The notes under the pieces are model-generated. The model saw nothing but the letters and a program-made list of their open reading frames with translations, made no database searches and had not been told where the DNA came from. Positions 26,220 through 41,854 of a DNA stretch of 64,000 nucleotides are shown piece by piece. The position numbers were made by a program, and so were the translations under genes. Origin of the DNA: an uncultured Alphaproteobacteria bacterium. Lineage in GTDB: Bacteria > Pseudomonadota > Alphaproteobacteria > RF32 > CAG-239. Positions within the stretch are counted from its first letter, which is position 1. Each line of letters begins with the position of its first letter. The stretch is taken from the NCBI GenBank assembly GCA_949297145.1, contig CASFQO010000013.1, forward strand, positions 82,768 through 146,767. The letters are read 5' to 3'.

Positions 26220-26295
26220 GGGCCCGTAGCTCAGTCGGTAGAGCATTTGACTTTTAATCAAAGGGTCATGGGTTCGAATCCCGTCGGGCTCACCA
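26220..26295 (+). tRNA. tRNA-Lys (anticodon UUU), CCA encoded
   Basis: Cloverleaf folded by hand: 7-bp acceptor GGGCCCG/CGGGCTC, D arm GCTC..GAGC, anticodon loop CTTTTAA, T arm ATGGG-TTCGAAT-CCCGT, 3' ACCA. Confidence 0.95.
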
Positions 26296-27788: not shown

Positions 27789-27862
27789 TTTGTCCCCTCT
27801 CTATATATAATAAGTATGAGGGTTGCTTAAGTATTGGCTTTAGTCCAGTTATTTAACATATT
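27789..27862 (-). promoter_or_regulatory. Early promoter/5'UTR cassette H (class TTAAGCAA)
   Basis: Minus-strand CTGGAC-N12-TTAAGCAA, core 27823..27848. Confidence 0.5.
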
Positions 27863-27936
27863 TTATCTCCTACGATTGATTTTTGGAGCGTTCTGCACCT
27901 CTTCTGACAAGCGAAAAAACGGAAAAATATCGTTAT

Positions 27937-27954
27937 AGCGTATTATTGTACGCT
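27937..27954. promoter_or_regulatory. Operator-like palindrome AGCGTA-TTATTG-TACGCT
   Basis: Perfect 6-bp inverted arms; a near-identical copy lies at 31267..31282. Confidence 0.35.
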
Positions 27955-28030
27955 TTTTGAAAATGTTTCGCCGTGTGGGCGGATTTTGGCCAATGCGGCG
28001 GGCGTTTGCTGTTTTCTGACTTTGCGACAC

Positions 28031-28064
28031 AATAAAAGCCTCGGTCAAAACCGAGGCTTTTATT
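28031..28064 (-). terminator. Rho-independent terminator of 28071..28280
   Basis: AAAAGCCTCGG pairs with CCGAGGCTTTT. Confidence 0.7.
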
Positions 28065-28070
28065 CTGAGC

Positions 28071-28280
28071 TTAGGCATTTAATACTCTAGTGTCATAGCC
28101 CATTTTTTCCAGAATCCGGAGCTTTTCGGCATCCGAGGCTTCACCTACCCAGTCCATGGCACGGGAATGATTGAAGATGGGACCGTTTTCAATCAGATTT
28201 TCGGCTAACAGAATATCTGTCAGCGTGTCAATATCATTGTACAAGATTTTGATGAGCATGTCCTTTTTTTTCTTAGTCAT
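28071..28280 (-). CDS. Small hypothetical protein (paralog of 30803..31060)
   Basis: C-termini align: AMDWVGEASDAEKLRILEKMGYDTRVLN vs AMCWLEKEPPLKEKLLVLKEMGYDLSILN. Confidence 0.6.
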   Translation of the reverse strand: MTKKKKDMLIKILYNDIDTLTDILLAENLIENGPIFNHSRAMDWVGEASDAEKLRILEKMGYDTRVLNA

Positions 28281-28375
28281 TTGATTTTCCTTTCCAAATC
28301 CGAAACGACACCGCGTCGTTCCTTATGTTTGGAGTTTTGCTTAATGTTTCGGAAATGTCCAGTTATTTATTAGCT
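28281..28375 (-). promoter_or_regulatory. Early promoter/5'UTR cassette A (class TTAAGCAA)
   Basis: Core 28337..28362; leader hairpin ACGAC-GCGGT-GTCGT; GAAAGGAAA Shine-Dalgarno. Confidence 0.5.
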
Positions 28376-28394
28376 AATTTATTGATTTTATTTC

Positions 28395-28484
28395 ACTTTT
28401 TGGCTGGACTTGTGAAATTGTTTCCGGCTTTGTTTGTTTAGCGGCGGCGATGGCGTCGCCTACAACAAACGAAAGGAAAAGACA
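28395..28484 (+). promoter_or_regulatory. Early promoter/5'UTR cassette D (class TTCCGGCT), divergent from cassette A
   Basis: CTGGAC-N12-TTCCGGCT, core 28404..28429; leader hairpin GGCGA-TGGCG-TCGCC. Confidence 0.5.
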
Positions 28485-28910
28485 ATGTTAAAATGTGAAA
28501 GCATAAGTGAAACAATCAGAGCTTACCGCAACGGAGAATATGACAAAGACAGAACAGGCAGCGACACAAAAGTCAAAGAGCTGTGGTGGGACTGGTTCTG
28601 CAAAGACAGCAGCCTTGTCAATAAAGGGCGCAACCTACTGCAAAAGCTCAACCAAATTGCAGACAGCAAGAAGATTGATGCAGGCAAAACCTACGTCTGG
28701 TTCAAAAACCACTGCCCCGGTAACGGTACGCTCTATGACAGCATGTCAATCAGCGACATTGAGACCAAAGACGTTATCTATTGCATTATCCCAAAATCTG
28801 GTCACTTTTGCGATGAGGGCAAAGCCTTCCTCTACGGCAGAGCGGACAAATTTAAAAAGCCGATTGTCGAGGGAACATGGAAAGACATTAAGAACTGGTT
28901 CCGCAGCTAA
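28485..28910 (+). CDS. Hypothetical protein
   Basis: 141-aa ORF from MLKCESIS with SD GAAAGGAAAAG; terminator follows. Confidence 0.6.
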   Translation: MLKCESISETIRAYRNGEYDKDRTGSDTKVKELWWDWFCKDSSLVNKGRNLLQKLNQIADSKKIDAGKTYVWFKNHCPGNGTLYDSMSISDIETKDVIYCIIPKSGHFCDEGKAFLYGRADKFKKPIVEGTWKDIKNWFRS

Positions 28911-28919
28911 GCAAAACAA

Positions 28920-28949
28920 CCGTCTGCCCAAAATGGCAGGCGGCTTTTT
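28920..28949 (+). terminator. Rho-independent terminator
   Basis: CCGTCTGCC pairs with GGCAGGCGG, followed by T5. Confidence 0.8.
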
Positions 28950-29021
28950 GTAACAAAAGAGACCCGTCGGCGTAGCCGGCGGTTCTTCATTAACGGGTAT
29001 AACGCGTTTTTTTCCCCTTAC

Positions 29022-29047
29022 AAAAAAGCCCCGGACTCAGCCGGGGC
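29022..29047 (-). terminator. Rho-independent terminator of the 29996->29055 operon
   Basis: GCCCCGG pairs with CCGGGGC, with T6 on the minus strand. Confidence 0.75.
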
Positions 29048-29054
29048 AAGAAAA

Positions 29055-29357
29055 TCAGAAACAGACCTTAACTTCTACCACCTCTAGCGCGGCATTGCGC
29101 GCCGTGAAACTTTGCAGCGGTATGGAAGCGGACACCGTCCCCTCCTCGTCAAGCAGCTCTGCTGTATAACGCGGAGAGCCAAGCGGTGCTGATGGATAGT
29201 GATAGAGATTGGCAAAACGATAGGTCGTGCGCAAAGACTGCCAGACCATTTGAAAAACAACAGGTTCGGTATCGGTTTGCGGTTCGGCGACACGGTGAAG
29301 CCGGAGTTTGTCGCCAGATGTGAGATGGATAACCATTTCGTTGTTGGATTTAAGCAT
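29055..29357 (-). CDS. Hypothetical protein (distant paralog of 29406..29705)
   Basis: YTAELLDEEGTVSASIPLQSF..AALEV vs FFAELSDEDGNLGSASALEAA..AAIAL. Confidence 0.55.
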   Translation of the reverse strand: MLKSNNEMVIHLTSGDKLRLHRVAEPQTDTEPVVFQMVWQSLRTTYRFANLYHYPSAPLGSPRYTAELLDEEGTVSASIPLQSFTARNAALEVVEVKVCF

Positions 29358-29369
29358 TGTATTTCTCCT

Positions 29370-29399
29370 AAAAAATGGGCTCCGGATTGTACCGGAGCC
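29370..29399 (-). terminator. Intra-operon hairpin/terminator
   Basis: GGCTCCGG pairs with CCGGAGCC, followed by a T-run on the minus strand. Confidence 0.65.
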
Positions 29400-29405
29400 A
29401 AATGG

Positions 29406-29705
29406 TTAGTTAAAAAGCTTGAAAGACAGCAAGGCGATGGCAGCTTCCGTGAGATTGGCAGCTTCGAGTGCTGATGCGCTGCCGAGATTGCCATCTTCAT
29501 CGCTGAGTTCGGCGAAAAAGCAGCTGGTGCCGCCGCCGAATACCGGCTTGGGCGCGACGGTCAGGCAGCCGATGCGTTTTTTGGACGTATTAACGGTAAC
29601 CGCAACGTCATAGCGGGCGGTGGTGCAGCCAAATTCTTCGGCAGTGCCTGCCGGAACCAGCCGGATGGCAACGGGGATTTGGATTTCAATATCGTTTGGG
29701 GGCAT
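29406..29705 (-). CDS. Hypothetical protein
   Basis: 99-aa ORF with AAGGAAA RBS. Confidence 0.55.
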   Translation of the reverse strand: MPPNDIEIQIPVAIRLVPAGTAEEFGCTTARYDVAVTVNTSKKRIGCLTVAPKPVFGGGTSCFFAELSDEDGNLGSASALEAANLTEAAIALLSFKLFN

Positions 29706-29729
29706 TTTATTTTCCTTTACAAAAGCGGG

Positions 29730-29945
29730 TTAGATTTTAGCGGAGTTAACCAAGTCGGACAGAACCTGCAACGGCTCTTCAATTTCCATCAGGCATCCGC
29801 CGATATAGTTAGCCTGGCGTTCGGCGTCTTCCGGAAAAGCATTTTGAACGGCTGATTCGACACGGCGATTAATTTTCTTGAGTAAAACTCGGGCTGTTGC
29901 CAGCTTTGCCTGAATGACGGCTAAACGTTGTTCTGAAGTAAGCAT
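29730..29945 (-). CDS. Small helical hypothetical protein (paralog of 29996..30229)
   Basis: MLTSEQRLAVIQAKLATARVLLKKI vs MLTEKDKLTVMQSNLAAIEMLAQKV; both have a central PED acidic patch. Confidence 0.55.
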   Translation of the reverse strand: MLTSEQRLAVIQAKLATARVLLKKINRRVESAVQNAFPEDAERQANYIGGCLMEIEEPLQVLSDLVNSAKI

Positions 29946-29995
29946 TTTATTCTCCCGGCAGGTTCCGGGGCCAAAGCCCCGGAAAAGATTGACAA

Positions 29996-30229
29996 TTATT
30001 TGAGTTTGTAGATGGCGTCGGTTGCCTGAGCCAGACTGTTGAGGTTGGCAGCCAAATCGGACAGATTGCCAAGCCCGCCAACAAGGTGGGTATAACGACG
30101 GCTGTCATCATAGTCTTCCGGAGCAGGTTCTGCCGCATGGCGAACCTGTTCAATGACCTTTTGAGCAAGCATCTCAATGGCAGCGAGGTTGGATTGCATA
30201 ACGGTTAATTTATCTTTTTCAGTTAACAT
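29996..30229 (-). CDS. Small helical hypothetical protein
   Basis: First gene behind cassette B. Confidence 0.55.
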   Translation of the reverse strand: MLTEKDKLTVMQSNLAAIEMLAQKVIEQVRHAAEPAPEDYDDSRRYTHLVGGLGNLSDLAANLNSLAQATDAIYKLK

Positions 30230-30330
30230 TTTGATTTTCCTTTCTTAAATTCCGGTGCGACACCGCGTCGCCCCCTGTGCTTGTTGTTTTTGCTTAATGT
30301 TTCGGTATTGTCCAGTCTTTATTTGTAATT
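30230..30330 (-). promoter_or_regulatory. Early promoter/5'UTR cassette B (class TTAAGCAA)
   Basis: Core 30290..30315; leader hairpin GCGAC-GCGGT-GTCGC. Confidence 0.5.
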
Positions 30331-30349
30331 AACGCATTGTTTTTGCTTT

Positions 30350-30381
30350 ATTTTTAAAATACAGGGCGACAGAATCGCCCT
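30350..30381 (-). terminator. Terminator of 30388..30738
   Basis: AGGGCGA pairs with TCGCCCT, followed by a T-rich tract on the minus strand. Confidence 0.55.
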
Positions 30382-30387
30382 TAAAGA

Positions 30388-30738
30388 TTAAATTTTATCC
30401 AGCAAACCGATATAACGCGCATAATCGTAACCTTCCGGATCAATCAGCAGGGTCGGCTTGCCATGGCAACAAAAAGCAATGACAGATAGCACAGGCTTCC
30501 CCTGATATTGGGTACAACCACCCTTACCGCAAAATTCTGGACGGCTTTTCAGACAAGAATTGCCGAAGTCACTGTATTCAGCAGCGGTCAGTTCCCAGAC
30601 TTCAGTTATGAGAACGGCTGTGCGATTTAGGATGTGGCAACTAAATTCTTCAACTTCCCGCAGAGAGCTTGGCTTGCGGACAAGACGGGTGTGGATCAGC
30701 GTATTAATCAGCGGACGCCGAGAGGTTTTGATTTCCAT
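30388..30738 (-). CDS. Cys-rich hypothetical protein
   Basis: 116-aa ORF; CGKGGCTQYQGKP...AFCCHGKP. Confidence 0.55.
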   Translation of the reverse strand: MEIKTSRRPLINTLIHTRLVRKPSSLREVEEFSCHILNRTAVLITEVWELTAAEYSDFGNSCLKSRPEFCGKGGCTQYQGKPVLSVIAFCCHGKPTLLIDPEGYDYARYIGLLDKI

Positions 30739-30802
30739 AATTTTATTCCTTTACAAAAAGCGATGGAGCAGCTCCGGCGGCAAAACACTGGAGCCGCAGC
30801 GA

Positions 30803-31060
30803 TTATTTTTCCAGATTCAGAATGCTGAGGTCATAGCCCATTTCTTTAAGGACAAGAAGTTTTTCCTTAAGCGGTGGTTCTTTTTCCAGCCAACACATAG
30901 CGTCACTTTCGGAAGTATAGCCTTTCCAAAGAGGTTCAATCAGCTTCAATTTGACCAGAACATCGGCAAGATAAGGCTCATCATCGCAAATAGAGGTAGC
31001 CTCATGCCACAGTACTTCGTCAATCAGAGATTTGAGAGTAACTTTTGAATTTTCAGTCAT
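30803..31060 (-). CDS. Small hypothetical protein (paralog of 28071..28280)
   Basis: See 28071..28280. Confidence 0.6.
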   Translation of the reverse strand: MTENSKVTLKSLIDEVLWHEATSICDDEPYLADVLVKLKLIEPLWKGYTSESDAMCWLEKEPPLKEKLLVLKEMGYDLSILNLEK

Positions 31061-31165
31061 TTTAGTTTTCCTTTCTTAAACTCGGGAGCGACACCGCGTC
31101 GCCCGCCGGATGTGTTTGTTTTTGCTTAATGTTTCAGATTAGTCCAGTCTTTATTTACAGTTAAC
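31061..31165 (-). promoter_or_regulatory. Early promoter/5'UTR cassette C (class TTAAGCAA)
   Basis: Core 31122..31147; about 90% identical to cassette B over ~110 nt. Confidence 0.5.
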
Positions 31166-31266
31166 GCATTGTTTTTGCTTGTTTTATTTTACAAAACATT
31201 TATGAAAACGAATTTTGCAGACAACAGACGGCTTTTCGGGGCGGCTGAAAAGAAAATTTTGTTTCG

Positions 31267-31282
31267 GCGTATTATTGTACGC
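31267..31282. promoter_or_regulatory. Operator-like palindrome GCGTA-TTATTG-TACGC (second copy)
   Basis: Same core as 27937..27954; lies just downstream of the XRE gene stop. Confidence 0.35.
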
Positions 31283-31319
31283 TTGTTTGTCCGTACGCCC
31301 CGTTTACGCAGCAAAGCGG

Positions 31320-31727
31320 CTATCTGGTTTCGGCCAAGGCGGCAGTGGTTTGCTTGAGCAAAGCCGGAGAACGGTAGGTTTCAAGCAGTTTGAAAACAAT
31401 CTGCCGCCCTTCAACGCTGCAGGAACGCAGCAGGCGCAGAAAATCAAGCTCTTCATCGGTCAACGGTGTGGCGCTGGAATTATCGTAATTGCCAAAGAAC
31501 CACGTTACTGGGCAGGAATATTCAACGGCAAGCTGATGGAGCCGGCCGGCAGATATTCGGTTTTGTGCTTTCTCATACTTTTGAAGTTGCTGAAACGTGA
31601 GTCCGAGGGCAGCGGCAACATCCATTTGCGAGCGTCCATGCAGATTACGCATTTTGCGGAGACGATTGCCGACGATGACATCAACTTCAAGACGGCGACG
31701 GGAAGTTTTAGTCTGAGTATTGGTCAT
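31320..31727 (-). CDS. XRE-family HTH transcriptional regulator
   Basis: VGNRLRKMRNLHGRSQMDVAAALGLTFQQLQKYEKAQNRISAGRL; ATGA overlap with the recombinase stop. Confidence 0.75.
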   Translation of the reverse strand: MTNTQTKTSRRRLEVDVIVGNRLRKMRNLHGRSQMDVAAALGLTFQQLQKYEKAQNRISAGRLHQLAVEYSCPVTWFFGNYDNSSATPLTDEELDFLRLLRSCSVEGRQIVFKLLETYRSPALLKQTTAALAETR

Positions 31728-33463
31728 GATATTTTCCTTTCCTTAAACCCATAGAGTTTGCGCTGGTCGTTCCAGAGCAGCGGTATGGGATGTTGTTTCA
31801 TAAAACGGTAGGTTAAAAATTCCGGAGCTTGTCCGGCCAAAACAGCCTCAATGATCTCTGGATCTATCAGGCTGATACGGAGTGCGAAGCGAATATCGCG
31901 TTCGTTGATTTTTTCGGAAGAATAGATTTCCTGCAGTGTCCAGCCCGATGCCAGTTTCTTTTGCCATTCATAAGCTTTGGCAAAATGGCGTGCCAAAGTC
32001 AGCGAGCCGTTAAAACGATTTTCCTGCGGCGCGGTGGATGGAACGATGATCTTGGCTCCGTTAGGCAGCCGCTTTCCTACATAACTGACACTGATTTGGA
32101 ATGTGTCGCCTTCATGATATTGAATACCGGCGATTTTGTTGTTTTCCATCAATTCAGCAAAGACGTTGCTTAATCCAGATTTTTTCACATCAATGGTAAT
32201 ACGGTCTTTATAAACCGTTATACGGGAAACAAGTTCCTGCAAAATGCGATTTTTTTCAGTCTCAAATAAACGGTCCCAAACGTTGTCCAGATTACAAAAC
32301 AGAGAATGAACCGTAGAAACTTCAATTTCCCGCTGGGTTGAAATATATTTGATAAAGAATTCGCGGGTTTTGAGGATTGACAGAACCTGCTCCATGACAA
32401 CACGTTCAATTTCGGATGCGCGAATCTGGTTAATCGGGCATTTGTCATCAAGTTTCCGCGCCCGACGGTAACAGCGATAATAGCGGTAACGGATATCGCC
32501 TTTATTGCAAAAACTCGGCGTCATGGCGGAACCGCAGCACCCGCAATAAATAAGTCCGGTTAAGAACGCCTGTTCGCTGACGCGATTTTCGGTCTTAACC
32601 CTTCTGGCCGGACGCTGAACAGCATGAGATTGAAAGATTGCCTGAACGACATCAAATGTCTGCGCCTCAATAATCGCTTCATGCTGCCCCGGATACAGTT
32701 TGTCTTTATGAGAAACCAGCCCTTTATATAACGGGTTTTGCAAAATGCGCTGAATGGAAGCCGTGGAAAACTTCCTCCCGCCGGAAACCCGCCCTTGTCT
32801 GGACGTGTGGCATTTGGTGCGATAACCGGCATTGTTAGCCGCATCCGTTGTATCGGCAAGAGAATGGGTAATAGTAAACGTTTGAAAAATGGAGCGAATG
32901 ATGGCAGCTTCTGTCTCGTTGATGACCAGACAACGGTTGCCAATGTTATACCCCAAGGGCGGAACGCCCCCCATCCACATTCCTTTGGCTTTTGAATTGG
33001 CAACTTTGTCACGGATGCGATCTCCGGCATTTTCCCGTTCAAACTGGGCAAAGACCAAAAACATATTGACCATTAAGCGCCCAATTGCGGTGGTCGTATT
33101 GTAATATTGATTTTCCCGCACCGACATGAATTCTACATGATATTTCTCAAATATATCAAGCAGCTTGAAAAAATCCCTGATTTCACGTGTCAGGCGGTCT
33201 ATCCGATAAATAATAACCCGGTTAACCAAACCATTGCGAATATCTTCCAACAGGCGCTGGATGGCAGGCCGGTTCAAAGTGCCGCCGGAATAGCCGCCAT
33301 CATCATAGCGGGTCGGAACTATATGCAGACACGGATCATTTTGGGAAACAAGGTAATTGTGACAAAACTCGTATTGGTTATCAAGCGAGTTAAAATCCTG
33401 ATCCAGACCTTCTTCGGTGGACTTTCGGGTATAGATGGCGCAATTTATTATTGAATCGGACAT
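31724..33463 (-). CDS. Large serine recombinase (integrase)
   Basis: Resolvase N-domain CAIYTRKSTEEG...IYRIDRLTRE, recombinase domain, Cys-rich zinc ribbon (CGCCGSAM...YYRCY...DDKC), coiled-coil tail; 579 aa. Confidence 0.9.
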   Translation of the reverse strand: MSDSIINCAIYTRKSTEEGLDQDFNSLDNQYEFCHNYLVSQNDPCLHIVPTRYDDGGYSGGTLNRPAIQRLLEDIRNGLVNRVIIYRIDRLTREIRDFFKLLDIFEKYHVEFMSVRENQYYNTTTAIGRLMVNMFLVFAQFERENAGDRIRDKVANSKAKGMWMGGVPPLGYNIGNRCLVINETEAAIIRSIFQTFTITHSLADTTDAANNAGYRTKCHTSRQGRVSGGRKFSTASIQRILQNPLYKGLVSHKDKLYPGQHEAIIEAQTFDVVQAIFQSHAVQRPARRVKTENRVSEQAFLTGLIYCGCCGSAMTPSFCNKGDIRYRYYRCYRRARKLDDKCPINQIRASEIERVVMEQVLSILKTREFFIKYISTQREIEVSTVHSLFCNLDNVWDRLFETEKNRILQELVSRITVYKDRITIDVKKSGLSNVFAELMENNKIAGIQYHEGDTFQISVSYVGKRLPNGAKIIVPSTAPQENRFNGSLTLARHFAKAYEWQKKLASGWTLQEIYSSEKINERDIRFALRISLIDPEIIEAVLAGQAPEFLTYRFMKQHPIPLLWNDQRKLYGFKERKIS

Positions 33464-33789
33464 GGAATTGTCTCCTTTACAACCAAAATGCGGGTTTGGT
33501 GGGCTGCAAAAAAATCAATTATTTTGACAAGCTGCCATGAACGGCGGCTTAATAAAGAAATATCTTCGACAATTACGCCGTGAATATGGCCTGAACGAAT
33601 ATCGTCAAAAAGATTTTCCATACCGTTGACGGCTCCACCGTCCGAAACTTTCAACGTATCGGAATACTGCGGCAAAAACGAACCGAGATGGAAGCGTCCG
33701 GCAAAGTCCCGACAATGGCTGTATTGTATCTGGTCGGCTTTGCAGTCTATATCACCCGGATGACTGCGGGTATAAATGGCATAACGCAT
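33448..33789 (-). CDS. Stand-alone resolvase-N-domain-like protein, atypical active-site context
   Basis: MRYAIYTRSHPGD... and VEDISLLSRRSW mimic the YxRxS and SRLSR blocks; 113 aa with no DNA-binding domain; TAATG junction upstream, 16-nt overlap downstream. Confidence 0.55.
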   Translation of the reverse strand: MRYAIYTRSHPGDIDCKADQIQYSHCRDFAGRFHLGSFLPQYSDTLKVSDGGAVNGMENLFDDIRSGHIHGVIVEDISLLSRRSWQLVKIIDFFAAHQTRILVVKETIPCPIQ

Positions 33790-34220
33790 TATTCTGTCTC
33801 CGAAAGTTTGAAAAAACGTTTGGCATTCCAATTGGTTCCTCCGGTAATTGTCCGGGCAATTTGGGCAAGTGACGGGTAATGAATTTCATTCATGACAAAA
33901 TCACTGTCTGTGACCCGTATTTTATAAGTCTGGCCGTGATATTCCTTGATAATGATGGTTCCGGCCGGCAGGGTCAGTTTGGTTTTTGGACGCGCATAAT
34001 CCGGCACTTTTCCTTTATTGATATCTTCCATCATACGGATGGCTTTGGAACTCAGCCCACCGAAAGCTAAAGCCTGAATCTGATAGGCAATCTTCGGAAT
34101 CAAATGCCGACGGCTGGCTGTGGCAGGCGGTTTTTCGTTGAACAGTTCCTGGTATTTTTTACGAAGTTCGGGCATTTTCATTTTATTAACGGAAATCACC
34201 TCTTGTAATACGCTATTCAT
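33789..34220 (-). CDS. DUF2924 domain protein
   Basis: ELRKKYQELFNEKPPATASRRHLIPKIAYQIQALAFGGLS ... YHGQTYKIRV ... YPSLAQIARTITGGTNWNAKRFF; AAGGAG RBS before ATG 34220. Confidence 0.7.
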   Translation of the reverse strand: MNSVLQEVISVNKMKMPELRKKYQELFNEKPPATASRRHLIPKIAYQIQALAFGGLSSKAIRMMEDINKGKVPDYARPKTKLTLPAGTIIIKEYHGQTYKIRVTDSDFVMNEIHYPSLAQIARTITGGTNWNAKRFFKLSETE

Positions 34221-34398
34221 TATTTGCTCCTTTAAGGTTGTTAAAATCAAAGGTAGTTGTGCTTACATTTGAAATTAGTTCCAGTCCTTTCTGCGGGCTT
34301 TTCCCTTGTTTTCTGACTAAATAGCGATGGAAAGCCAATGTGAGCAAATTAGTGACAACTTTGAGGTTATCCGGCAGTTCTTCCGTGTTTGAATTCAT
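34213..34398 (-). CDS. Possible small leader ORF of the recombinase operon
   Basis: 61-aa ORF overlapping the DUF2924 start by 8 nt; weak GGAG RBS. Confidence 0.3.
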   Translation of the reverse strand: MNSNTEELPDNLKVVTNLLTLAFHRYLVRKQGKSPQKGLELISNVSTTTFDFNNLKGANNE

Positions 34399-34519
34399 GA
34401 CAGCAATCTCCGTTGGTTAAACTTTATTTTGATGGCTCAACGGTTGCACAAACAAAAAAATTTGTCGCGTGGGGAACTGCGGGGAGTGGGGAATATTATT
34501 TAACTCTTTGATTTTATTT

Positions 34520-34613
34520 GTCTTTTATGCTGGACTTATAGGTTTGTTTCCGGCTTTGTATGTTTACAGGCAGCGATGGTTCCGCCTGAAACAAACAAAG
34601 AAAGGAAATAAAA
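34520..34613 (+). promoter_or_regulatory. Early promoter/5'UTR cassette E (class TTCCGGCT)
   Basis: Core 34530..34555; leader hairpin CAGGC...GCCTG. Confidence 0.5.
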
Positions 34614-34823
34614 ATGAGTAATGAAGTAAAATACCCGGAAATTACGGTAGAATTGATTGGACAGAACGGAAACATCTTTAATCTGATTGGAATCTGCACA
34701 AAAGCCATGCGACGGGCGAAAGTTAGTATGGAAGAATGTAATCGTTTTGTTGATGAAGTTACGAGCGCAAAAAATTATAACGAAGCTCTGGCGGTTATCA
34801 TGCGCTGGGTAGACGTAGAATAA
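34614..34823 (+). CDS. Small hypothetical protein
   Basis: 69-aa ORF behind cassette E. Confidence 0.6.
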   Translation: MSNEVKYPEITVELIGQNGNIFNLIGICTKAMRRAKVSMEECNRFVDEVTSAKNYNEALAVIMRWVDVE

Positions 34824-34894
34824 AGAAATGAAGCACGGAAACAAAAACTTCCGGTGCTTTTTTGGGAAAATGGCAACAGTTCTTCGGCAATTTA

Positions 34895-34978
34895 TCTTTT
34901 ATGCTTGACTTATAAAAATGTTTCCGGCTTTGTGTGTTTGCAACCCCAATAAAGCATAATATACAAAGGAGAAAAAAC
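34895..34978 (+). promoter_or_regulatory. Early promoter/5'UTR cassette F (class TTCCGGCT; CTTGAC variant)
   Basis: Core 34904..34929. Confidence 0.5.
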
Positions 34979-35575
34979 ATGAATATTAAACTGACACCCG
35001 CACAGGAAAAACTCATTAATGCATTAAAAGCCAATCAGGACAGTGATGTCTATGAACACTTAGCTCATATACGTAACCGGCAGATAAGCGACAACTTGGT
35101 TAATACAATGCTTCATCTTAACTTGTTGCAAAAAGACTCTGAAACCGGCAAGATCAACCTGAATTATGAAAATCCCGTCATAAAAGGCAACATGACGATG
35201 GAAAGCAGTATTGCCGCAACTTCCGACAGGATGACTGACAACCAAACCGGCGATGGCAGCGAAATAATTGCAGAATCTGGTAAAGCTGAGGAAAACTCCG
35301 CCGAAGAAACCGAAATTGCCGTCCCAGACAGCAAAACGGAAATGGTGCCTCCAACCCGGAATAAAAAAGCAGTTATCATGGAAATGCTGGCCCGCAGAGC
35401 ATCGCTGAGCGAAATGATGGAAGCGACCGGCTGGCTGGAAAAATCTGTCCGCGGCGTTATCAGCCAACTGAAAAAAGAGAAAAAACTGGTAATTATCAGA
35501 GAAAAAGACGAGCTCAAACAAAATTACTACTCCATTAAAAATCTGAATGCCGAGGCTCTGCGAGCGGCGGAATAA
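34979..35575 (+). CDS. DUF3489 domain protein
   Basis: C-terminus KKAVIMEMLARRASLSEMMEATGWLEKSVRGVISQLKKEKKLVI matches the DUF3489 winged-helix pattern; AAGGAG RBS before ATG 34979. Confidence 0.65.
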   Translation: MNIKLTPAQEKLINALKANQDSDVYEHLAHIRNRQISDNLVNTMLHLNLLQKDSETGKINLNYENPVIKGNMTMESSIAATSDRMTDNQTGDGSEIIAESGKAEENSAEETEIAVPDSKTEMVPPTRNKKAVIMEMLARRASLSEMMEATGWLEKSVRGVISQLKKEKKLVIIREKDELKQNYYSIKNLNAEALRAAE

Positions 35576-35733
35576 AGAAAACCAAGCAGGCCTTTTATAT
35601 AAAACATAAGAAGCCTGTTTGTTTTTTGGAAAAAAAATTCAAATTTTACTTGAAAAATTTACACAACACACTTAAAATGGACATCAAGAATTTAATATCT
35701 ACTCAAAGTTGTGCAACAAGTTAAAGGTTTAAA

Positions 35734-36456
35734 ATGCAATTACCACTAAAAGAATACTTTAGCTTACAGGAAATCTGCAGTTTTTGGTCTGTCACAAATG
35801 ATGATTTACTATATTATGCTGAAAATAACTTGCTGGAAATTTGTGTCAGAACCACCGCAATTATAGCGGAATTAGAGCAAATAAACTCTGAAAATATAAG
35901 TTGGGGAGATTTTGAGGGGAAAAGCTTGTGCTTTTCCCCTCAATCTTTAATGTTAACAGACATATACCGAATTATAAAAGCCGGAGGAAATCCGGTATTG
36001 GTTTTTCAGACTAAAAACAGCGGAATGGATAAACTGTCTGAGCTGATCCGAAATAAAGGGATATCACTCTCAACGTTGGATTTGATTATTACCCGCAAGG
36101 AAAAAATCCGTTTTGAACAATTTAACGGAATAGACGACAAGCAATTGCAGTATCAAAGTTTTTCTTATTCCCCGGACTTTCGTGAAGTTTGGCACTACGG
36201 AAAACGGCATTTATTCGGACCGGTACAGGCTAAAATTATTTCGCAGCTTTATAGTGCCAGCAAAACAGACAAACCTTGGGTGCATGCTAAAACGCTGCTT
36301 TCTCGCTCAGGATCCGTCAGTACACGAGTTTCTGCGGTTTTCCATGGAAACCGGTCATGGAATGAGATTACTTATTCTGATCATAAAGGGTATTATCGTT
36401 TAAAAATTCCGATAAACGAACATCTATATCCAACCCAAATGTTGTTGAAATTTTAG
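35734..36456 (+). CDS. Hypothetical protein with N-terminal MerR/excisionase-like HTH (paralog 1)
   Basis: YFSLQEICSFWSVTNDDLLYYAENNLLE; C-terminus aligns with 36721..37425; low G+C. Confidence 0.55.
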   Translation: MQLPLKEYFSLQEICSFWSVTNDDLLYYAENNLLEICVRTTAIIAELEQINSENISWGDFEGKSLCFSPQSLMLTDIYRIIKAGGNPVLVFQTKNSGMDKLSELIRNKGISLSTLDLIITRKEKIRFEQFNGIDDKQLQYQSFSYSPDFREVWHYGKRHLFGPVQAKIISQLYSASKTDKPWVHAKTLLSRSGSVSTRVSAVFHGNRSWNEITYSDHKGYYRLKIPINEHLYPTQMLLKF

Positions 36457-36471
36457 CCAAATAACTGATAG

Positions 36472-36495
36472 CCCGGATTTTCCGGGTTATTTTAT
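36472..36495 (+). terminator. Rho-independent terminator
   Basis: CCCGGA-TTT-TCCGGG, followed by a T-rich tail. Confidence 0.55.
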
Positions 36496-36720
36496 ATTTA
36501 AAATCAAATGATATTAAAAGAGATGCTATATAAGATGTTTCCTAACCGATTCCTTACTTTCGCCATGAAAAAAATAGATTTTGAGTCAAAATATTTAATA
36601 TTTTATATAAAAAATTAAAATTCTCCATACCTGTCCCTGAAGTAAAGATTTGTTTGCACATACCGACAAACACAATTTTTTATGTTAAAGATTTCTACGT
36701 TAACGGAGGTATAGACAGAT

Positions 36721-37425
36721 ATGCTTAATAAAAAATATTTTTCGGTAACCGAATTGCTAGAACGCTGGGATACAAACTTATATGATATTCTCTATTTAGC
36801 AGAAAACAAGGTTCTTGACTTAAGAATAAGAGCATTCGGGATTTGCGGAACTTTTTGCCAATTGCAAAAGAACGGCGAACTTTCCTATGAGCTTCCTTTA
36901 AAACGCTGCGAAATGAACGGAATATTTCCAATATCGCTGAAATCTGCCCGACAAATTATTCTTAACCGTGCAGTCGAACTGAATACATTGTTGCCGACGC
37001 AAAAAGATTGCGATTACATTAAACTCGGAGAATGCTTAAAAATCGGACTTGAAGATTTGGTTGTATTAGAAAAAGATAAGGAGCGGATTGAAAAGGATTT
37101 TGGCTTTTTAGACAGTATTTGCAAAGTTAAAAATATCTCGCCAGCAGATAATATTGATGATTTCTTTATTGAAGAATTGCCGAACGGCCATACAAGGTTC
37201 AGCTATCATGGTAAAACCTACACGTATGGCAGGGTTCAGTCATCTATCATCAGGCAGCTCTATGATGCGGCTAAAGACGGACGAGTTTGGGTGTATGGTA
37301 AAACGTTACTGAAAAATGCAGGTTCGTCAAGCTTTCGGCTTGGCGATATTTTTAAGCCGCACCGAGAGTGGATGGAGATAGTAAAAGGCAATAATCAGGG
37401 GTTATACCGGCTTTATTTGGAATAA
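36721..37425 (+). CDS. Hypothetical protein with N-terminal MerR/excisionase-like HTH (paralog 2)
   Basis: YFSVTELLERWDTNLYDILYLAENKVLD; YGRVQSSIIRQLYDAAKDGRVWVYGKTLL vs FGPVQAKIISQLYSASKTDKPWVHAKTLL. Confidence 0.55.
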   Translation: MLNKKYFSVTELLERWDTNLYDILYLAENKVLDLRIRAFGICGTFCQLQKNGELSYELPLKRCEMNGIFPISLKSARQIILNRAVELNTLLPTQKDCDYIKLGECLKIGLEDLVVLEKDKERIEKDFGFLDSICKVKNISPADNIDDFFIEELPNGHTRFSYHGKTYTYGRVQSSIIRQLYDAAKDGRVWVYGKTLLKNAGSSSFRLGDIFKPHREWMEIVKGNNQGLYRLYLE

Positions 37426-37552
37426 GAGAAAAATCATTGTGTGTTCTGTTTGGGAACAGCTCCCCTTTGCTTCCCGCTGCTCCCTGCATCGTGTTTTCAG
37501 CCGGGACTGCCACAATAACCTCCGTAATCTTAAACTACCTGTGGAGGTTATT

Positions 37553-38035
37553 ATGCAACCGACTAACATTATTTATGAAATATCATCAAAACCTATCGAC
37601 GAGCTGGCTGAACTACCCGCAGCCGAACTGGCAGAGATGCAAAAGGAAGTAGAGACCCTGATTGTGCTGGCAGACAATGTGCGCAAATGGCTGAACGGAG
37701 CTTTGCAGCTGAAATATCGTGACCGGCTCGATGCCAGACGGCGGGAACTTGGTCGCACGTTCGGCGAAATCCGTTTGCAGGAAGACGGGATGGAAATTAC
37801 GGAAGACCGACCGCTGGTGCTGGAATGGCAAAAGGACAGGCTTAAGGAATACGCCAAACGCATTGCAGCCAATGGCGGTAATCCGGAAGACTACATGGAT
37901 ATTGACTATACAATTTCAGAGAAAAAGTACTGTTCGCTCAGCGATGAAGCCCGTAAAAGCCTGAACGCTGCCGGAAACATCCACCCTGGATGTGCGGTCA
38001 TAACTCTGACCAAAAGGGAAACTGCCGATGACTAA
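37553..38035 (+). CDS. Hypothetical phage protein (coiled-coil N-terminus)
   Basis: GGAGG RBS before ATG 37553; the upstream ORF extension lacks coding character. Confidence 0.6.
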   Translation: MQPTNIIYEISSKPIDELAELPAAELAEMQKEVETLIVLADNVRKWLNGALQLKYRDRLDARRRELGRTFGEIRLQEDGMEITEDRPLVLEWQKDRLKEYAKRIAANGGNPEDYMDIDYTISEKKYCSLSDEARKSLNAAGNIHPGCAVITLTKRETADD

Positions 38036-38249
38036 TACCGAAAACCTGCATGAATGGCCGTTGTCCTCTTTTGCCGAATTAGGCAAAGTTGCTGTTAATC
38101 GGTTGGCGGAAAACAAAATCATAACAATTGCGGATTTGCTTAAGCTCACCAAAAGGGATTTGCAGTATATTCCCAATTTTGGCCCGAAAAGTATTGATCA
38201 GGTGCTGAGACTGTTAAAGAAATATAACCTGAAAATCCGCGAACGCTAA
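38028..38249 (+). CDS. RNA polymerase alpha-CTD-like helix-hairpin-helix protein
   Basis: VAVNRLAENKIITIADLLKLTKRDLQYIPNFGPKSIDQVLRLLKKYNL matches the alpha-CTD pattern (NCL..agI.tv.dL....dLl.ipNfGkKSl.ei). Confidence 0.55.
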   Translation: MTNTENLHEWPLSSFAELGKVAVNRLAENKIITIADLLKLTKRDLQYIPNFGPKSIDQVLRLLKKYNLKIRER

Positions 38250-38272
38250 AGTTTATCGAGGGGGATAAGCCG

Positions 38273-40282
38273 ATGCAATTTTATTATGATAGCGGGCTCT
38301 TGAAAAAAAGAGTTCTGCAGGATTTGGAAATCTGGCTGCCGCAATGGTATCCGAAAGGACGCGGCCGCAAAGGATATTTTGAAATCGGAGATATTGGCGG
38401 TACACCCGGCGACAGCCTGAAAATCTGTCTTACCAGTGCCAAGCGCGGCCTGTGGTACGATTTTGCCACGGCCGAGGGCGGCGACGTTTTCTCCCTGTGG
38501 GGAAGCAACCGCGGCATCTCCGGTTTTGGCAATATTCTCAAGGACATTGCCGGATATTACGGCATCAGTGGTTGTGAAGTCCCCGGAACCAAGGAAAAAC
38601 GCGGCAGTCCGGATCGACGGCATGTTTATCTTAACGCCGACGGCGATATAATATGTTATATCTATCGCTATGAATATACAGATGGCAGCAAAGAGTTTCT
38701 ACCTTGGAATGCGGCAAACGGTAAGACCGAATTTCCGTCCCCGCGGCCGCTTTACCGCCTACCGCAGCTTCTGAAAAACAATGTAATCATCTTAGTTGAG
38801 GGCGAAAAATGCGCCGATGCGCTGGCCGCTACCGGATTTGCAGCGACAACACTGATGGGGGGTGCCAATACCCGGATTGAAAAAACGGATCTCTCGCCGC
38901 TCAAAGGCAAAGACATCATTTTGTGGCCGGACAATGACGAACCGGGGCGGAAATATGCCGACAATGTGGCTGAAGCTCTATTGAAGCTGCCGGTGGCTTC
39001 TCTCAAAATTACCCCGCCGATGCCAGATAAGCCTGCCAAATGGGATGTGGCAGATGCGGTGGCTGAGAAATTTGACATTGCCGGACATCTGGCCAAAGCG
39101 GAAATTTATGAGCCAATGGAAAAGTTCAAACCAAGCGGACGTTTGAAAATCGCTGATTTTACCGGAGAAATGTTCGCTACCGAGCCGCCGGAACTGCAAT
39201 TCGTGGTCAAAAACACAATTCCGCGCGGCGTGGTCGGGCTGCTCTCTGCAATGGGAGACACCGGCAAAGGTATGCTGTTATTGGATTTGGCGCTCAAAAT
39301 CTGTCAGGATAAGACAGGAATGGGTCTTAAAGCCTTCGGTAACCCGGTAACGGCTACCGGCAGCGTGGTTATTTTTGCCGGAGAAGACACCTCCGATGAA
39401 ATTCACCGCCGGATTTACAAGTTGATGCCGGGCGGACTGAACGGACGGATTGATTCGGCCAAACTCCATATCATCCCGCTGCCGAATACCGGCGGACCGT
39501 TTGCAATTGCCCGAAAATGCCGTGGCAGCGACGAATTCTGCCTGACCGAAGAATTTGAAAACATCAAAACGCAGCTTGAAGCCATTCCGGACTTGGCGTT
39601 GGTGGTGTTTGACCCGCTGGCCTCGTTTGCCGGATTGGATCTGAATTCTGATCCGCGGGCGGCAAGTTATATTACCGGACAGCTGGCCGCGCTGGCGACC
39701 GCAACCAATGCTGCGGTTATTGTTGCCCACCATATTCGCAAAAATGACGGTATTACCTCGCCGCAGGAAGCCCGCGACGCCATTCGCGGCACAACCGCAA
39801 TTGTAGATGGGGTGCGGTTTGCGATTGCCTTTTGGGCTAACACAGCGGAAGAAAAAAAGATTTTTGCCGAACTGGACCAGGAATACCGTCCGAATGCCTG
39901 TTTCAAAGGCGCGGTGGTTAAAGCAAACTTTGGAGCCGACCGGACGGTGCGCAACTATATCCGCAGCGAAACCCGGGCGGTGTTAGAAGAAGTGCCGGTC
40001 AAGATTGTGCCGAAAACCCTGTCGGCAGAAGAATTTGACAAGTTGCTAGTTGAAGCTATCGGCGAAGCGGAGAATACCGGAACGCCGTTTACAATTTCGG
40101 GAATCTCCGGACTTTACGAAAACCGCGAGAAACTGCCGTTTGAACTGCAGGAAGCTTCCCGCGACTTTATCCGCAATACGGCCAAACGGCTATTGGCTTC
40201 CGGACAAATTTGCCGTATCGGCCAGACCGGCAGCAGCGATAAAAAATGGCTTGGTATCCCCGATGCCGGGAGGTGCGCATGA
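38273..40282 (+). CDS. Bifunctional primase/helicase-type replication protein (TOPRIM + RepA-like AAA)
   Basis: TOPRIM: ILVEGEKCADAL ... ILWPDNDEPGRKYA; P-loop region LLSAMGDTGKGML; Walker B-like ALVVFDPL; 669 aa. Confidence 0.8.
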   Translation: MQFYYDSGLLKKRVLQDLEIWLPQWYPKGRGRKGYFEIGDIGGTPGDSLKICLTSAKRGLWYDFATAEGGDVFSLWGSNRGISGFGNILKDIAGYYGISGCEVPGTKEKRGSPDRRHVYLNADGDIICYIYRYEYTDGSKEFLPWNAANGKTEFPSPRPLYRLPQLLKNNVIILVEGEKCADALAATGFAATTLMGGANTRIEKTDLSPLKGKDIILWPDNDEPGRKYADNVAEALLKLPVASLKITPPMPDKPAKWDVADAVAEKFDIAGHLAKAEIYEPMEKFKPSGRLKIADFTGEMFATEPPELQFVVKNTIPRGVVGLLSAMGDTGKGMLLLDLALKICQDKTGMGLKAFGNPVTATGSVVIFAGEDTSDEIHRRIYKLMPGGLNGRIDSAKLHIIPLPNTGGPFAIARKCRGSDEFCLTEEFENIKTQLEAIPDLALVVFDPLASFAGLDLNSDPRAASYITGQLAALATATNAAVIVAHHIRKNDGITSPQEARDAIRGTTAIVDGVRFAIAFWANTAEEKKIFAELDQEYRPNACFKGAVVKANFGADRTVRNYIRSETRAVLEEVPVKIVPKTLSAEEFDKLLVEAIGEAENTGTPFTISGISGLYENREKLPFELQEASRDFIRNTAKRLLASGQICRIGQTGSSDKKWLGIPDAGRCA

Positions 40283-40504
40283 CGGCGCCGTTACCATACT
40301 TTTCTGAATGTAAAAAGCAGGAATACGCCGTCAGGAATCCGCAATGCAGGAAAACTGCGGCTTACAGCGAAATGACCGCTAAGGTAAAAACGGGTTTTCG
40401 TCATGAGCGTGACGGATCCCGGTATTTAGATTTTGGTTCAGAAATCGCTTTTAACTCATTGAAAAATAATTATTACTATTTGGAGAAATTCACAACAGCG
40501 CGGT

Positions 40505-40536
40505 CGGTATATATATTTTTTAAAATATATATACCG
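40505..40536. repeat. Perfect AT-rich palindrome CGGTATATATATTTT-TT-AAAATATATATACCG
   Basis: 15-bp arms read directly; lies between the primase/helicase gene and the next gene. Confidence 0.9.
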
Positions 40537-40589
40537 GCTGCCGTGACCGTCGTCAGGAACGGAAAACAGGAACAGCAAAGGAAATTGTC

Positions 40590-41027
40590 ATGGCAGAATT
40601 AATTTGGACACGAGAGATGGTCAAAGACTGGTTTGAGAGCGCCGTCTACACACTCAAGAAAATGCCGAGGGAACAGGTTCAGGGTTACAAAACCTATTGG
40701 CCGGGCATCAGATATACCGAAATGGAACTTTTGCAGATGGACAGAAAACCCATCCGTCTGGTGGCCAACAGTCTGGATATTGCCCGTTTAGATGCGGTGC
40801 TGGAATGGATCTATCTGGTGGATAATGTAGACCAGCGGTGGATTATCTGGCAGCGGGCCAAACGTTATCCCTGGCGGCTGATCTGCAAAAGATACGGCAA
40901 AACCAGCCGAACGTTGATTGACTGGCACAATGCTGGGATTGATACCATCGTCAAAGTGTTGAATAATCCGAAAAGTGATCTTTTTGCCAGGAACCGTGTT
41001 CTTTTAAGCAAATATTTGTCTTATTAG
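40590..41027 (+). CDS. Hypothetical phage protein, possible C-terminal HTH
   Basis: 145-aa ORF; WRLICKRYGKTSRTLIDWHNAGIDTIV resembles sigma-region-4/HTH. Confidence 0.55.
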   Translation: MAELIWTREMVKDWFESAVYTLKKMPREQVQGYKTYWPGIRYTEMELLQMDRKPIRLVANSLDIARLDAVLEWIYLVDNVDQRWIIWQRAKRYPWRLICKRYGKTSRTLIDWHNAGIDTIVKVLNNPKSDLFARNRVLLSKYLSY

Positions 41028-41097
41028 CTGGACTTAGCAAAATGTTTCCGGCTTTGTGTTTGCTGTAACGAAAAACAGTAACAGAAAGAAAAATACA
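41020..41097 (+). promoter_or_regulatory. Early promoter/5'UTR cassette G (class TTCCGGCT)
   Basis: Core 41028..41053. Confidence 0.5.
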
Positions 41098-41280
41098 ATG
41101 AGGGATGAAAACATCAAACTGACGATTGACCCGACAGCTGGCCTTTTGAAAATCAAAATGCCGGACGGAACTGTCCGCAGAGTGGAACCTGAGAAAAGCC
41201 TGCCGATTTCGGCAGATTTGGCCGGATTTAGAATCAACGGGGAGCATTACAGCAACGGTCTGGGCGACGGGTTCGGCTAA
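41098..41280 (+). CDS. Small hypothetical protein
   Basis: 60-aa ORF from MRDENIKL behind cassette G. Confidence 0.45.
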   Translation: MRDENIKLTIDPTAGLLKIKMPDGTVRRVEPEKSLPISADLAGFRINGEHYSNGLGDGFG

Positions 41281-41607: not shown

Positions 41608-41765
41608 GATAGATTGAACAGCGTACTATACATTATAAGCAACAATGGATAGTGTACTATACAAAATGTGACTGTTGCTAAAAAAAGGAACAATACGCAG
41701 ATGAAACGGGGGTATTTACGGCAAATGTAAACATTTGGCGTTTTTAACGCTTAAAAAACGAAAAA

Positions 41766-41854
41766 GTGCAGACATTTGTCGAATATAACATAAAAAATGC
41801 AGACATTTACCAAATATAGATTTATACAGGAAGCCTTAAGCGGGCGGTTTCGTC
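41766..41854. repeat. Left copy of ~90-bp direct repeat (two TGCAGACATTTnnnnAATAT units plus fic 3' end)
   Basis: Aligns at about 80% identity with 43338..43428. Confidence 0.8.

Follow-up and report, generated by a model that had tools for sequence, protein, structure and literature searches.

Two strand-partitioned families of probable promoter-plus-leader cassettes in a lambda-like prophage of an uncultured gut bacterium

The 64,000-nt stretch of contig CASFQO010000013.1 (assembly GCA_949297145.1, positions 82,768 to 146,767) analysed here, hereafter the window, contains host DNA with 36-40% GC in its first 26 kb, followed by a lambda-like prophage. The prophage adjoins a tRNA-Lys gene (26220-26295) and spans from ~26.3 kb to the window end, with a GC content of 40-51% (44-50% beyond 48 kb). 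Its genes encode an N6-methyltransferase, an XRE protein, a large serine recombinase, a DUF2924 protein, a DUF3489 protein, an RNA polymerase alpha-CTD-like protein, a Toprim/AAA_25 primase-helicase and a DUF6362 protein, along with Fic, an IS3-type transposase, two further DNA methyltransferases, a lambda gpA terminase and a lambda-family portal. The gene names used in a preliminary description of this locus are backed by Pfam matches to HTH_3 (XRE protein), DUF3489 and RNA_pol_A_CTD (E 4.5e-9). Eight prophage units open with copies of a repeated cassette belonging to one of two sequence families, here called class M and class P, each confined to one strand, which probably combine a promoter with a 5' leader.

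The cassettes are ~100-145 nt long, the repeated unit starting ~40-55 nt upstream of a -35-like hexamer, CT(G/T)GAC (CTKGAC), and ending at the start codon. From 5' to 3', they consist of an A/T tract, the hexamer, a class-specific block, in most copies a leader hairpin, and a strong Shine-Dalgarno sequence (SD) with the start codon. Class M has GAAACA-TTAAGCAA as its block, and class P has TGT-TTnnGGCT-TTGT. Exact-pattern searches of the window retrieved four class M cores, all four on the minus strand, and four class P cores, all four on the plus strand (Table 1), with a chance expectation of 0.00 for each class in 100 dinucleotide-preserving shuffles. The eight sites of the preliminary description, four per strand with the octamer fixed by strand, are reproduced to the base. 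No core was found by this search in the 26 kb of host DNA, and with the looser pattern CTKGAC-N12-TT, the 64 kb yielded no more than three further sites, all unrelated. The ATG that opens the downstream open reading frame (ORF) lies 34, 56, 60 and 61 nt from the octamer end in class M and 55, 58, 49 and 44 nt in class P, so that the expected nearby ATG is present at 34-61 nt in all eight units, preceded in each by a purine-rich SD.

The A/T tracts reported upstream of the cores are likewise present and read AAATAAAGA or AATAAATAA in class M and TTTTATTT...TTTTAtG in class P. The class M tract AAATAAAGA, located directly 5' of CTKGAC, is close to the proximal UP-element subsite. Other reported details apply to part of the copies. 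The sequence TTGTnTGTTT follows three of the four plus-strand cores, the exception being p41028, which has TTGTGTTTGC; the exact SD GAAAGGAAA occurs in five of the eight units, the rest having AAAGGAG, AGAAAGAAAAA or GAGAGGGGA; and a GC leader hairpin is found in five copies and is missing from the remaining three.

Table 1. Cassettes, terminator-like hairpins and candidate regulatory genes of the prophage (window coordinates; ATG, start codon position).
Feature	Coordinates	Strand	Details
Class M cores	27823-27848, 28337-28362, 30290-30315, 31122-31147	-	exact pattern CTKGAC-N12-TTAAGCAA
Class P cores	28404-28429, 34530-34555, 34904-34929, 41028-41053	+	exact pattern CTKGAC-N12-TTCCGGCT
m27848, class M core	27823-27848	-	CTGGAC-N12-TTAAGCAA; 5' of N6-methyltransferase gene 26979-27788
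m27848 leader	27793-27801	-	SD GAGAGGGGA; no leader hairpin
m28362, class M unit	28278-28393	-	A/T tract; core 28337-28362; hairpin 28302-28321; SD 28286-28294; ATG 28280
p28404, class P unit	28368-28487	+	T-rich tract; core 28404-28429 (CTGGAC-N12-TTCCGGCT); TTGTTTGTTT
p28404 leader	28443-28460 (hairpin)	+	SD 28471-28479; ATG 28485; heads 141-aa ORF
m30315, class M unit	30227-30354	-	core 30290-30315; hairpin 30255-30273; SD 30236-30244; ATG 30229
m31147, class M unit	31058-31200	-	core 31122-31147; hairpin 31085-31104; SD 31067-31075; ATG 31060
p34530, class P unit	34494-34616	+	core 34530-34555; hairpin 34567-34588; SD 34600-34608; ATG 34614
p34904, class P unit	34890-34981	+	CTTGAC variant; core 34904-34929; SD 34965-34971; ATG 34979 (DUF3489 protein)
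p41028, class P unit	41014-41100	+	core 41028-41053; ATG 41098 (60-aa ORF)
Terminator-like hairpin	28035-28060		bidirectional; AAAGCCTCGG...CCGAGGCTTT; between 69-aa gene and m27848 unit
Terminator-like hairpin	30363-30381		5' of m30315
Terminator-like hairpin	34836-34853		5' of p34904
XRE-family helix-turn-helix protein gene	31320-31727	-	last gene of DUF2924/serine-recombinase operon (34398 to 31320)
DUF3489 protein gene	34979-35575	+	
240-aa protein gene	35734-36456	+	no Pfam family; TTGAAA-N17-TAAAAT at 35650-35678; terminator 36467-36491
234-aa paralog gene	36721-37425	+	TTGAGT-N17-TATATA at 36581-36609
RNA polymerase alpha-CTD-like protein gene	38028-38249	+	73 aa; helix-hairpin-helix; Pfam RNA_pol_A_CTD

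Each cassette opens its own short unit, often directly after a terminator. The most telling arrangement is that of m28362, which heads a 69-aa ORF, and p28404, which heads a plus-strand gene within the otherwise minus-strand left arm. The two divergent genes start at 28280 (-) and 28485 (+), and the 204-nt gap between them consists only of the two back-to-back cassettes. Because the gap contains nothing else, both divergent promoters have to lie within the cassettes. This gap and the terminators located upstream of several copies speak for the reading of the preliminary description, namely, that the cassettes are promoters with 5' leaders. Similarly, p34530, which heads the gene for a 69-aa phrog_1933 protein, is divergent from the recombinase/XRE operon. 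The 5' tract of p41028 overlaps the 3' end of the DUF6362 gene, the stop codon of which immediately precedes CTGGAC. Adjacent cassette units are separated by the hairpin at 28035-28060 and by a 35-nt repeat (83% identical) with a GCGTA...TACGC hairpin, present at 27924-27958 and 31253-31287, ~80-110 nt upstream of m27848 and m31147, respectively; this repeat may be an insulator or terminator of the class M units. Right after the terminator that ends the p41028 unit, GTACTATACA is found twice, 31 nt apart (41623-41663).

We gathered 46 related loci by searching IMG/VR and GTDB genomes, by exact-protein look-ups and in one metagenome scan. Together, they carry 108 class P and 33 class M cassettes (57 and 26 unique 120-mers, respectively). 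In all 19 loci with both classes, these lie on opposite strands, and the class P strand is always the strand of the replication genes. The class-by-strand rule described for the window extends to every related contig examined. It tracks orientation rather than genome arm, given that plus-strand genes of the left arm use class P (p28404, as well as positions 10242 and 11788 of related locus L005 and position 2018 of L065). A scan that left the octamer free (CTKGAC-N12-TT..G... with an A/T-rich 5' tract) recovered only TTCCGGCT, TTAAGCAA and their single-base variants. Class P is conserved as CTKGACTT, seven variable bases and TGT-TT-nn-GGCTTTGT-n-T, with the octamer variants TTCAGGCT, TTATGGCT, TTCTGGCT, TCCCGGCT and TTCCGGTT, and class M as CTGGAC, six semi-variable bases and GAAACA-TTAAGCAA. 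A TGTTT-rich plus-strand core common to both classes was considered and discarded, as it is not conserved in m27848 or m28362.

Orthologous cassettes have identical blocks but differ in the central 7 nt of the spacer, and the genes beside them share only 70-74% identity. Because the blocks are unchanged despite the changes in the spacer and the divergence of the neighbouring genes, they are evidently under selection rather than being recent copies. In a class M variant from L066, two compensating 1-nt indels keep the CTGGAC-N13-TAAGC distance. Across 185,579 species genomes, the class P pattern occurs only in the related elements, plus one chance hit. The class M scan of viral contigs yielded mostly single chance hits outside the family. 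Neither cassettes nor obvious analogous repeats were found in high-GC distant relatives of the DUF3489 protein (L040-L042) or of the 240-aa and 234-aa proteins encoded downstream of it (L075 and L079).

The same cassette sequence is coupled to many different genes, with ~10 unrelated N-termini behind class P and at least 7 behind class M cassettes, that is, at least ~17 small gene families together. Comparison with close relatives places the boundaries of gene gain and loss within the cassettes. L002 has two extra units, each consisting of a cassette and a gene; homology to the window stops at the start codon (31058) and resumes at 31200/31282, the 5' edge of the cassette. L005 lacks window positions 30355-31050, the junction lying within a cassette that aligns to both m31147 and m30315. 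Because the junction cassette aligns to both copies, this deletion is the product expected of recombination between direct repeats 832 nt apart. Across the relatives, stretches of 93-95% identity alternate with stretches of 70-74%, the switches falling at cassettes. Since the same cassette heads many genes and indels begin and end inside it, the cassettes appear to be both portable expression signals and homology patches for gene exchange.

The strand rule might follow from such exchange. Under the proposed mechanism, each class would be a direct-repeat family that is spread and homogenised by homologous recombination with resident copies. Exchange between direct repeats would keep orientation, whereas a crossover between inverted copies would invert genome segments. 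The two families would have begun as a divergent promoter pair, each being subsequently confined to one strand and homogenised separately. Because exchange between direct repeats preserves orientation, this scenario explains the strand rule without invoking two regulons; we infer that it is the simplest account, and it is compatible with the two blocks also being read differently. As a separate observation, a 10.3-kb contig (L015; ERZ16268244 scaffold_7707) is 100% identical to window positions 28398-37472 and has other flanks, which carry OEP-like and ABC-transporter-like ORFs, one break lying 6 nt upstream of the CTGGAC of p28404. Either the recombinase module is arranged differently in this contig, or the contig is an assembly chimera.

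With regard to transcription, host RNA polymerase would be recruited via the UP-like tract and the -35-like CTKGAC. In all copies, TGGAC(T/A) or TTGACT matches TTGACA at four to five of the six positions. The downstream part of the cassettes is non-canonical. As pointed out in the preliminary description, taking the octamer as a -10 element leaves a 12-nt spacer, too short for sigma-70. A sigma-70 consensus scan matched none of the eight cassettes. A sigma-70 -10 hexamer needs A at -11 and T at -7, 16-19 bp downstream of the -35. Positions 25-28 of class P are C, T, T and T in all copies, so that no A is found at -11 for any spacer of 16-19 bp. Because no A can fall at -11, class P is not a normal sigma-70 promoter, and it very probably depends on a non-housekeeping sigma factor or on an accessory activator. 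In class M, by its sequence (TGGACn-N17-AAAAAC, AAAACT or AACCCT), the A at -11 is present, and this class could be a weak sigma-70-type promoter. Other sigma-70 registers, with the A/T tract as -35 or with GAAAAT or AAACAT of the spacer as -10, gave nothing consistent across copies.

Canonical promoters are found next to the cassettes. The host tRNA-Lys gene has TTGACT-N17-TATATA, and the same phage family also uses CTTGAC-N17-TAATCT, located ahead of the phrog_2480 gene in many relatives, including L003 (7530), L005 (547) and L055 (9744), and TTGACA-N17-TATAGT, which, accompanied by overlapping TGTACA palindromes, replaces the cassette at the position of p41028 in some relatives (L051, 12970; L060, 14809). 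Because the tRNA-Lys gene, the gene for the 240-aa protein and the relatives carry such sequences, canonical sigma-70 promoters are evidently used beside the cassettes, with the same CTTGAC as -35.

Promoter types recognised by other sigma factors fit no better. For sigma-54 (GG-N10-GC, TGGCAC-N5-TTGC), the distance is wrong, as had been noted for GG-to-GC: class P has GG-N12-GT and class M has GG-N18-GC, a relaxed alignment yields TGGACT-N7-(A/T)TGT instead of N5, and the early region encodes no enhancer-binding AAA+ activator. Promoters read by sigma factors with extracytoplasmic function (ECF), exemplified by the Rhodobacter RpoE consensus TGATCC-N16-CGTA (PMC5507510), do not match either: CTGGAC is without AAC, and 16 nt downstream, GCAA (class M) or GGCT (class P) is found, with no CGT. 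Comparison with sigma-28 promoters also led to their rejection; the sigma-32 motif CCCCATnT is unmatched, the CC of TTCCGGCT not being conserved. The Bacteroidetes sigma-ABfr promoter (TAnnTTTG at -7, TTTG at -33), which belongs to hosts that do not use SDs, was dropped as well, class P having (C/A/T)GGCTTTG without TA and class M having no TTTG, and it is also unfit because the host has a proteobacterial-type ParE, strong SDs and the tRNA-Lys promoter TTGACT-N17-TATATA. The T4 MotA box was rejected too, since its counterpart TTGCTTAA, found on the strand opposite class M, is wrongly oriented and mismatched at the penultimate base. The cassettes contain no CtrA boxes or GANTC methylation sites and no match to the alphaproteobacterial LexA box (GTTC-N7-GTTC), and no sigma factor or RNA polymerase gene was detected among the early ORFs (Pfam, E up to 5).

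The leader hairpin occupies a fixed position. A 7-bp stem begins 13-16 nt after the octamer in 19 of the 20 unique class M leaders, and the same position is seen for three gene families with class P leaders. In a set of 23 distinct sequences, pairing of the stem is kept almost throughout. Double changes from GC to AT occur, as do many G-T pairs, which only the sense strand tolerates; taken together, these features point to an RNA structure and not a DNA site. The hairpins of the two classes have GG-TGTCG and position in common; this sequence similarity suggests common ancestry or common function. The leaders have no match in Rfam. If transcription starts ~10 nt after the octamer, the hairpin would be located 3-6 nt from the 5' end, like known mRNA-stabilising hairpins. 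In class P, pairing of the 5' arm TTGTnTGTTT with the pre-SD sequence gives 133 Watson-Crick pairs, compared to 127.9 +/- 2.5 for permuted partners, a score reached by 31 of 1000 permutations; when G-U pairs are allowed, the controls are not exceeded.

The best, if speculative, candidates for readers of the cassettes are the paralogous 240-aa and 234-aa proteins, for which the evidence is weak and partly derived from a structural model. The two proteins are 28% identical (E 3e-26), have no sequence match in Pfam or PDB, and are encoded after the DUF3489 gene, with synteny kept in every relative examined. The AlphaFold model of the 240-aa protein (pLDDT 75) has an N-terminal helix-turn-helix (HTH)-like unit and a C-terminal domain of ~95 residues, the top PDB matches of which are OmpR/PhoB effector domains (probability up to 0.99, target TM 0.5-0.6, non-significant E of 0.05-0.7); as modelled, this domain resembles an OmpR/PhoB-type winged helix. 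No co-variation of the paralogs with the cassette sequence was found.

The XRE protein is an alternative candidate regulator. In the switch region between the recombinase/XRE operon and p34530 (34447-34493), the palindrome CACAAAC-N-TTTGT (34447-34465) and a pair of GTGGGGAA direct repeats (34469 and 34486) are candidate operators; neither the palindrome nor the GTGGGGAA motifs are repeated at the cassettes. The gene for the alpha-CTD-like protein, which is free-standing, is conserved beside the primase-helicase gene in all relatives, and the protein retains most of the residues that contact UP elements, with what we take to be the equivalents of N268, G296, K298 and S299 of E. coli, and has V at R265. 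A doubtful but attractive model for class P, and perhaps class M, is that host polymerase docks via the UP-like tract and CTGGAC and that one paralog per class reads the block at fixed spacing, thereby bypassing the requirement for A at -11. If true, the phage would have two private, strand-partitioned promoter languages closed to host genes.

Several explanations for the two classes can be weighed against one another. The preliminary description suggested two regulons read by an element-encoded factor, or two operator classes for opposite directions of transcription. The class blocks could indeed define two regulons, bound by two element-encoded activators or repressors such that each paralog reads one class, which we regard as possible, though somewhat unlikely. 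Each site combines the shared CTGGAC with a class-specific block into a bipartite, asymmetric target whose two conserved parts are separated by a variable spacer of fixed length, with one compensated indel, and the two classes match the two paralogs in number, both of which are kept in synteny in all relatives. The paralog genes have their own sigma-70-like promoters and a terminator, so host polymerase could express them first; the model combines the HTH-like unit with the OmpR/PhoB-like domain, and class P has no usable -10. A monomeric two-domain phage repressor acting on an asymmetric site provides a precedent (PMC9283540). However, the structural matches are non-significant and sequence matches are lacking in Pfam and PDB; the class P block is unchanged where the paralog is only 50-58% identical, with no co-variation between protein and site; the XRE, DUF3489 and alpha-CTD-like proteins are equally available candidates; and two regulons do not predict the perfect class-by-strand rule, including the left-arm plus genes.

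It appears unlikely that the cassettes are simply early promoters for host sigma-70, with CTKGAC as -35 and the 3' block as an operator through which the XRE protein or another repressor silences all eight in the lysogen. Although canonical promoters of this phage family have CTTGAC as their -35 and two cassettes likewise carry it, the UP-like tract lies directly upstream, class M has its A at -11 and an XRE repressor-like gene is available, class P lacks the A in every register and the scan matches no cassette. Furthermore, neither block shows the dyad symmetry that an XRE dimer would call for: inverted repeats of >=30 nt are absent, and inspection revealed no shorter dyad. The one palindrome of the switch region does not recur at the cassettes. 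Recognition by an alternative host sigma factor (sigma-54, sigma-32, ECF or sigma-28-type), which would tie the prophage early genes to the host stress response, is improbable. With the conserved GG of CTGGAC and its very high conservation, the motif resembles such promoters, and the hexamer-N12-octamer layout is reminiscent of group-3 sigma motifs, but the sigma-54 spacing, the ECF AAC/CGT elements and the sigma-32 motif all fail, and no copy lies in the 26 kb of host DNA, the class P pattern being confined, apart from one chance hit, to the related elements among the species genomes searched. Least credible of all is the possibility that the cassettes are not promoters, and that the genes are transcribed from elsewhere, the repeats being RNA-processing or translation signals only, or recombination sites only. 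The hairpin and SD are indeed RNA-level features, and indel junctions do fall in the cassettes; yet the back-to-back pair leaves no space for another promoter, terminators precede several cassettes, and the conserved A/T tract and CTKGAC, located upstream of the leader, have no RNA-level rationale.

On balance, we consider it probable that the lambda-like prophage carries two families of promoter-plus-5'-leader cassettes that are portable and recombining, and that owe their strand rule to recombination. Several considerations weigh against this conclusion. We infer promoter activity solely from the anatomy and context of the cassettes, and the start-site clues, which are indirect, disagree: the fixed position of the hairpin suits a start ~10 nt after the octamer, with CTKGAC then at -35, and the weakly supported long-range pairing in class P would place the start at or before the octamer end. 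The near-invariant G at position 3 (CTGGAC rather than CTTGAC) suggests a reader other than region 4 of sigma-70. In addition, the strand rule derives from a sample of related, non-independent phages, and gene conversion can also act between inverted repeats, so that recombination alone does not force the families apart.

The host appears to be a low-GC uncultured gut bacterium of the Pseudomonadota. The host part of the window encodes a ParE that passes the proteobacterial equivalog cutoff, as well as RNase J and Nuo subunits, and human-gut metagenome contigs carry identical or related elements. Among species-representative genomes, related elements are found in two metagenome-assembled genomes, and because these bear different labels (Pseudomonadota and Oscillospiraceae), the assignment is provisional. 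The host DNA also has a match to the Rfam rpsB small RNA (RF01815; 89-205, minus strand) with a score of 40.0 bits, exactly the gathering cutoff. Within the prophage, an IS3-family transposase pair (HTH_Tnp_2, then rve) is inserted at 44018-45411 in a low-GC stretch. The Fic gene (41822-43348, minus strand) is flanked by ~95-nt direct repeats (41761-41854 and 43334-43428), each holding TGCAGACATTT twice, 31 nt apart; Fic and its repeats resemble a gene cassette acquired on its own, or else a group of binding sites. Finally, four plus-strand copies of GTTCGCA(C) (48704, 48715, 48785 and 48856; window 48704-48862) lie in intergenic DNA upstream of the C5-methylase/ParB-methylase/terminase block and may be late-gene activator or packaging-related sites.

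The cassettes can be compared to several known systems. Alphaproteobacterial housekeeping promoters have the consensus CTTGAC-N17-CTATAT in Sinorhizobium and TTGACgS-N10-14-GCTAnAWC in Caulobacter. The -35 CTTGAC/CTGGAC matches these consensus sequences, with class M GCAAAAAC at the place of Caulobacter GCTAnAWC and class P CTTTGT at the place of Sinorhizobium CTATAT. However, both -10 A positions are replaced in class P, G for T at position 3 is nearly invariant, and the spacer-proximal block is conserved far beyond what sigma contacts need. Class P would represent a compact promoter class without the adenine normally essential for promoter opening, which, if active, points to an uncharacterised phage transcription factor or sigma-like specificity. 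As for the leader, the lambda N/nut system combines boxA with a boxB hairpin (5-bp stem, GNRA-like pentaloop) immediately 3' of early promoters. Most cassettes are followed by a conserved 7-bp hairpin with a GCGGU or AUGG loop, and neither a boxA-like element nor an N-like arginine-rich protein was identified.

The stoperators of Cluster A mycobacteriophages, bound by the L5 gp71-type repressor, are similarly asymmetric conserved sites repeated across a temperate phage genome, with an orientation tied to the direction of transcription, and provide a precedent for a monomeric regulator with two DNA-binding domains on a bipartite asymmetric site (PMC9283540). However, stoperators are 13-14 bp long, number >20 per genome, lie mostly inside transcription units and stop elongation, whereas the cassettes are 100-145 nt long, occur at 5' ends only and include the UP-like tract, -35-like hexamer, leader and SD. 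No homologue of the gp71-type repressor was detected. Lambdoid morons resemble the cassette units in being small accessory genes with their own promoter, several with their own terminator, inserted between conserved modules, but their promoters are individual and unrelated, whereas all units described here use one of two standard cassettes.

The closest known system is that of the promoter-early stem-loops (PeSLs), which are mobile regulatory cassettes found in T4-type phages (Arbiol et al., 2010, PMC2839356; Comeau et al., 2014, PMC4122927). Like the cassettes, PeSLs join an A/T-rich tract to a promoter, followed by a stem-loop, an SD and the start codon of a small gene whose function is unknown. 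For PeSLs, recombination between neighbouring cassettes is also described as giving encapsidated mini-circles. They are present in many repeats in plastic genome regions, often joining a terminator to a promoter, and the junctions of insertions, deletions and replacements between related phages fall within them, as is the case here for L002 and L005. There are also clear differences. PeSL promoters match the sigma-70 consensus, whereas the -10 of the cassettes is non-canonical; PeSLs belong to lytic T4-type myoviruses, whereas the present element is a temperate lambda-like prophage, encoding a serine recombinase along with the lambda gpA terminase and a lambda-family portal; the PeSL stem-loop is located within or upstream of the promoter, whereas the hairpin here lies in the transcribed leader; and the cassettes form two sequence families strictly split by strand, for which recombination offers a simple, testable reason. 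In bacteria for which genetic manipulation is at present difficult, such cassettes could be used as portable expression signals. What is new relative to PeSLs is thus the temperate phage, the non-canonical -10, the two strand-partitioned families and the leader hairpin, extending the idea of cassettes that both express and shuffle accessory genes from lytic T4-type phages to a temperate phage family of uncultured human-gut bacteria.

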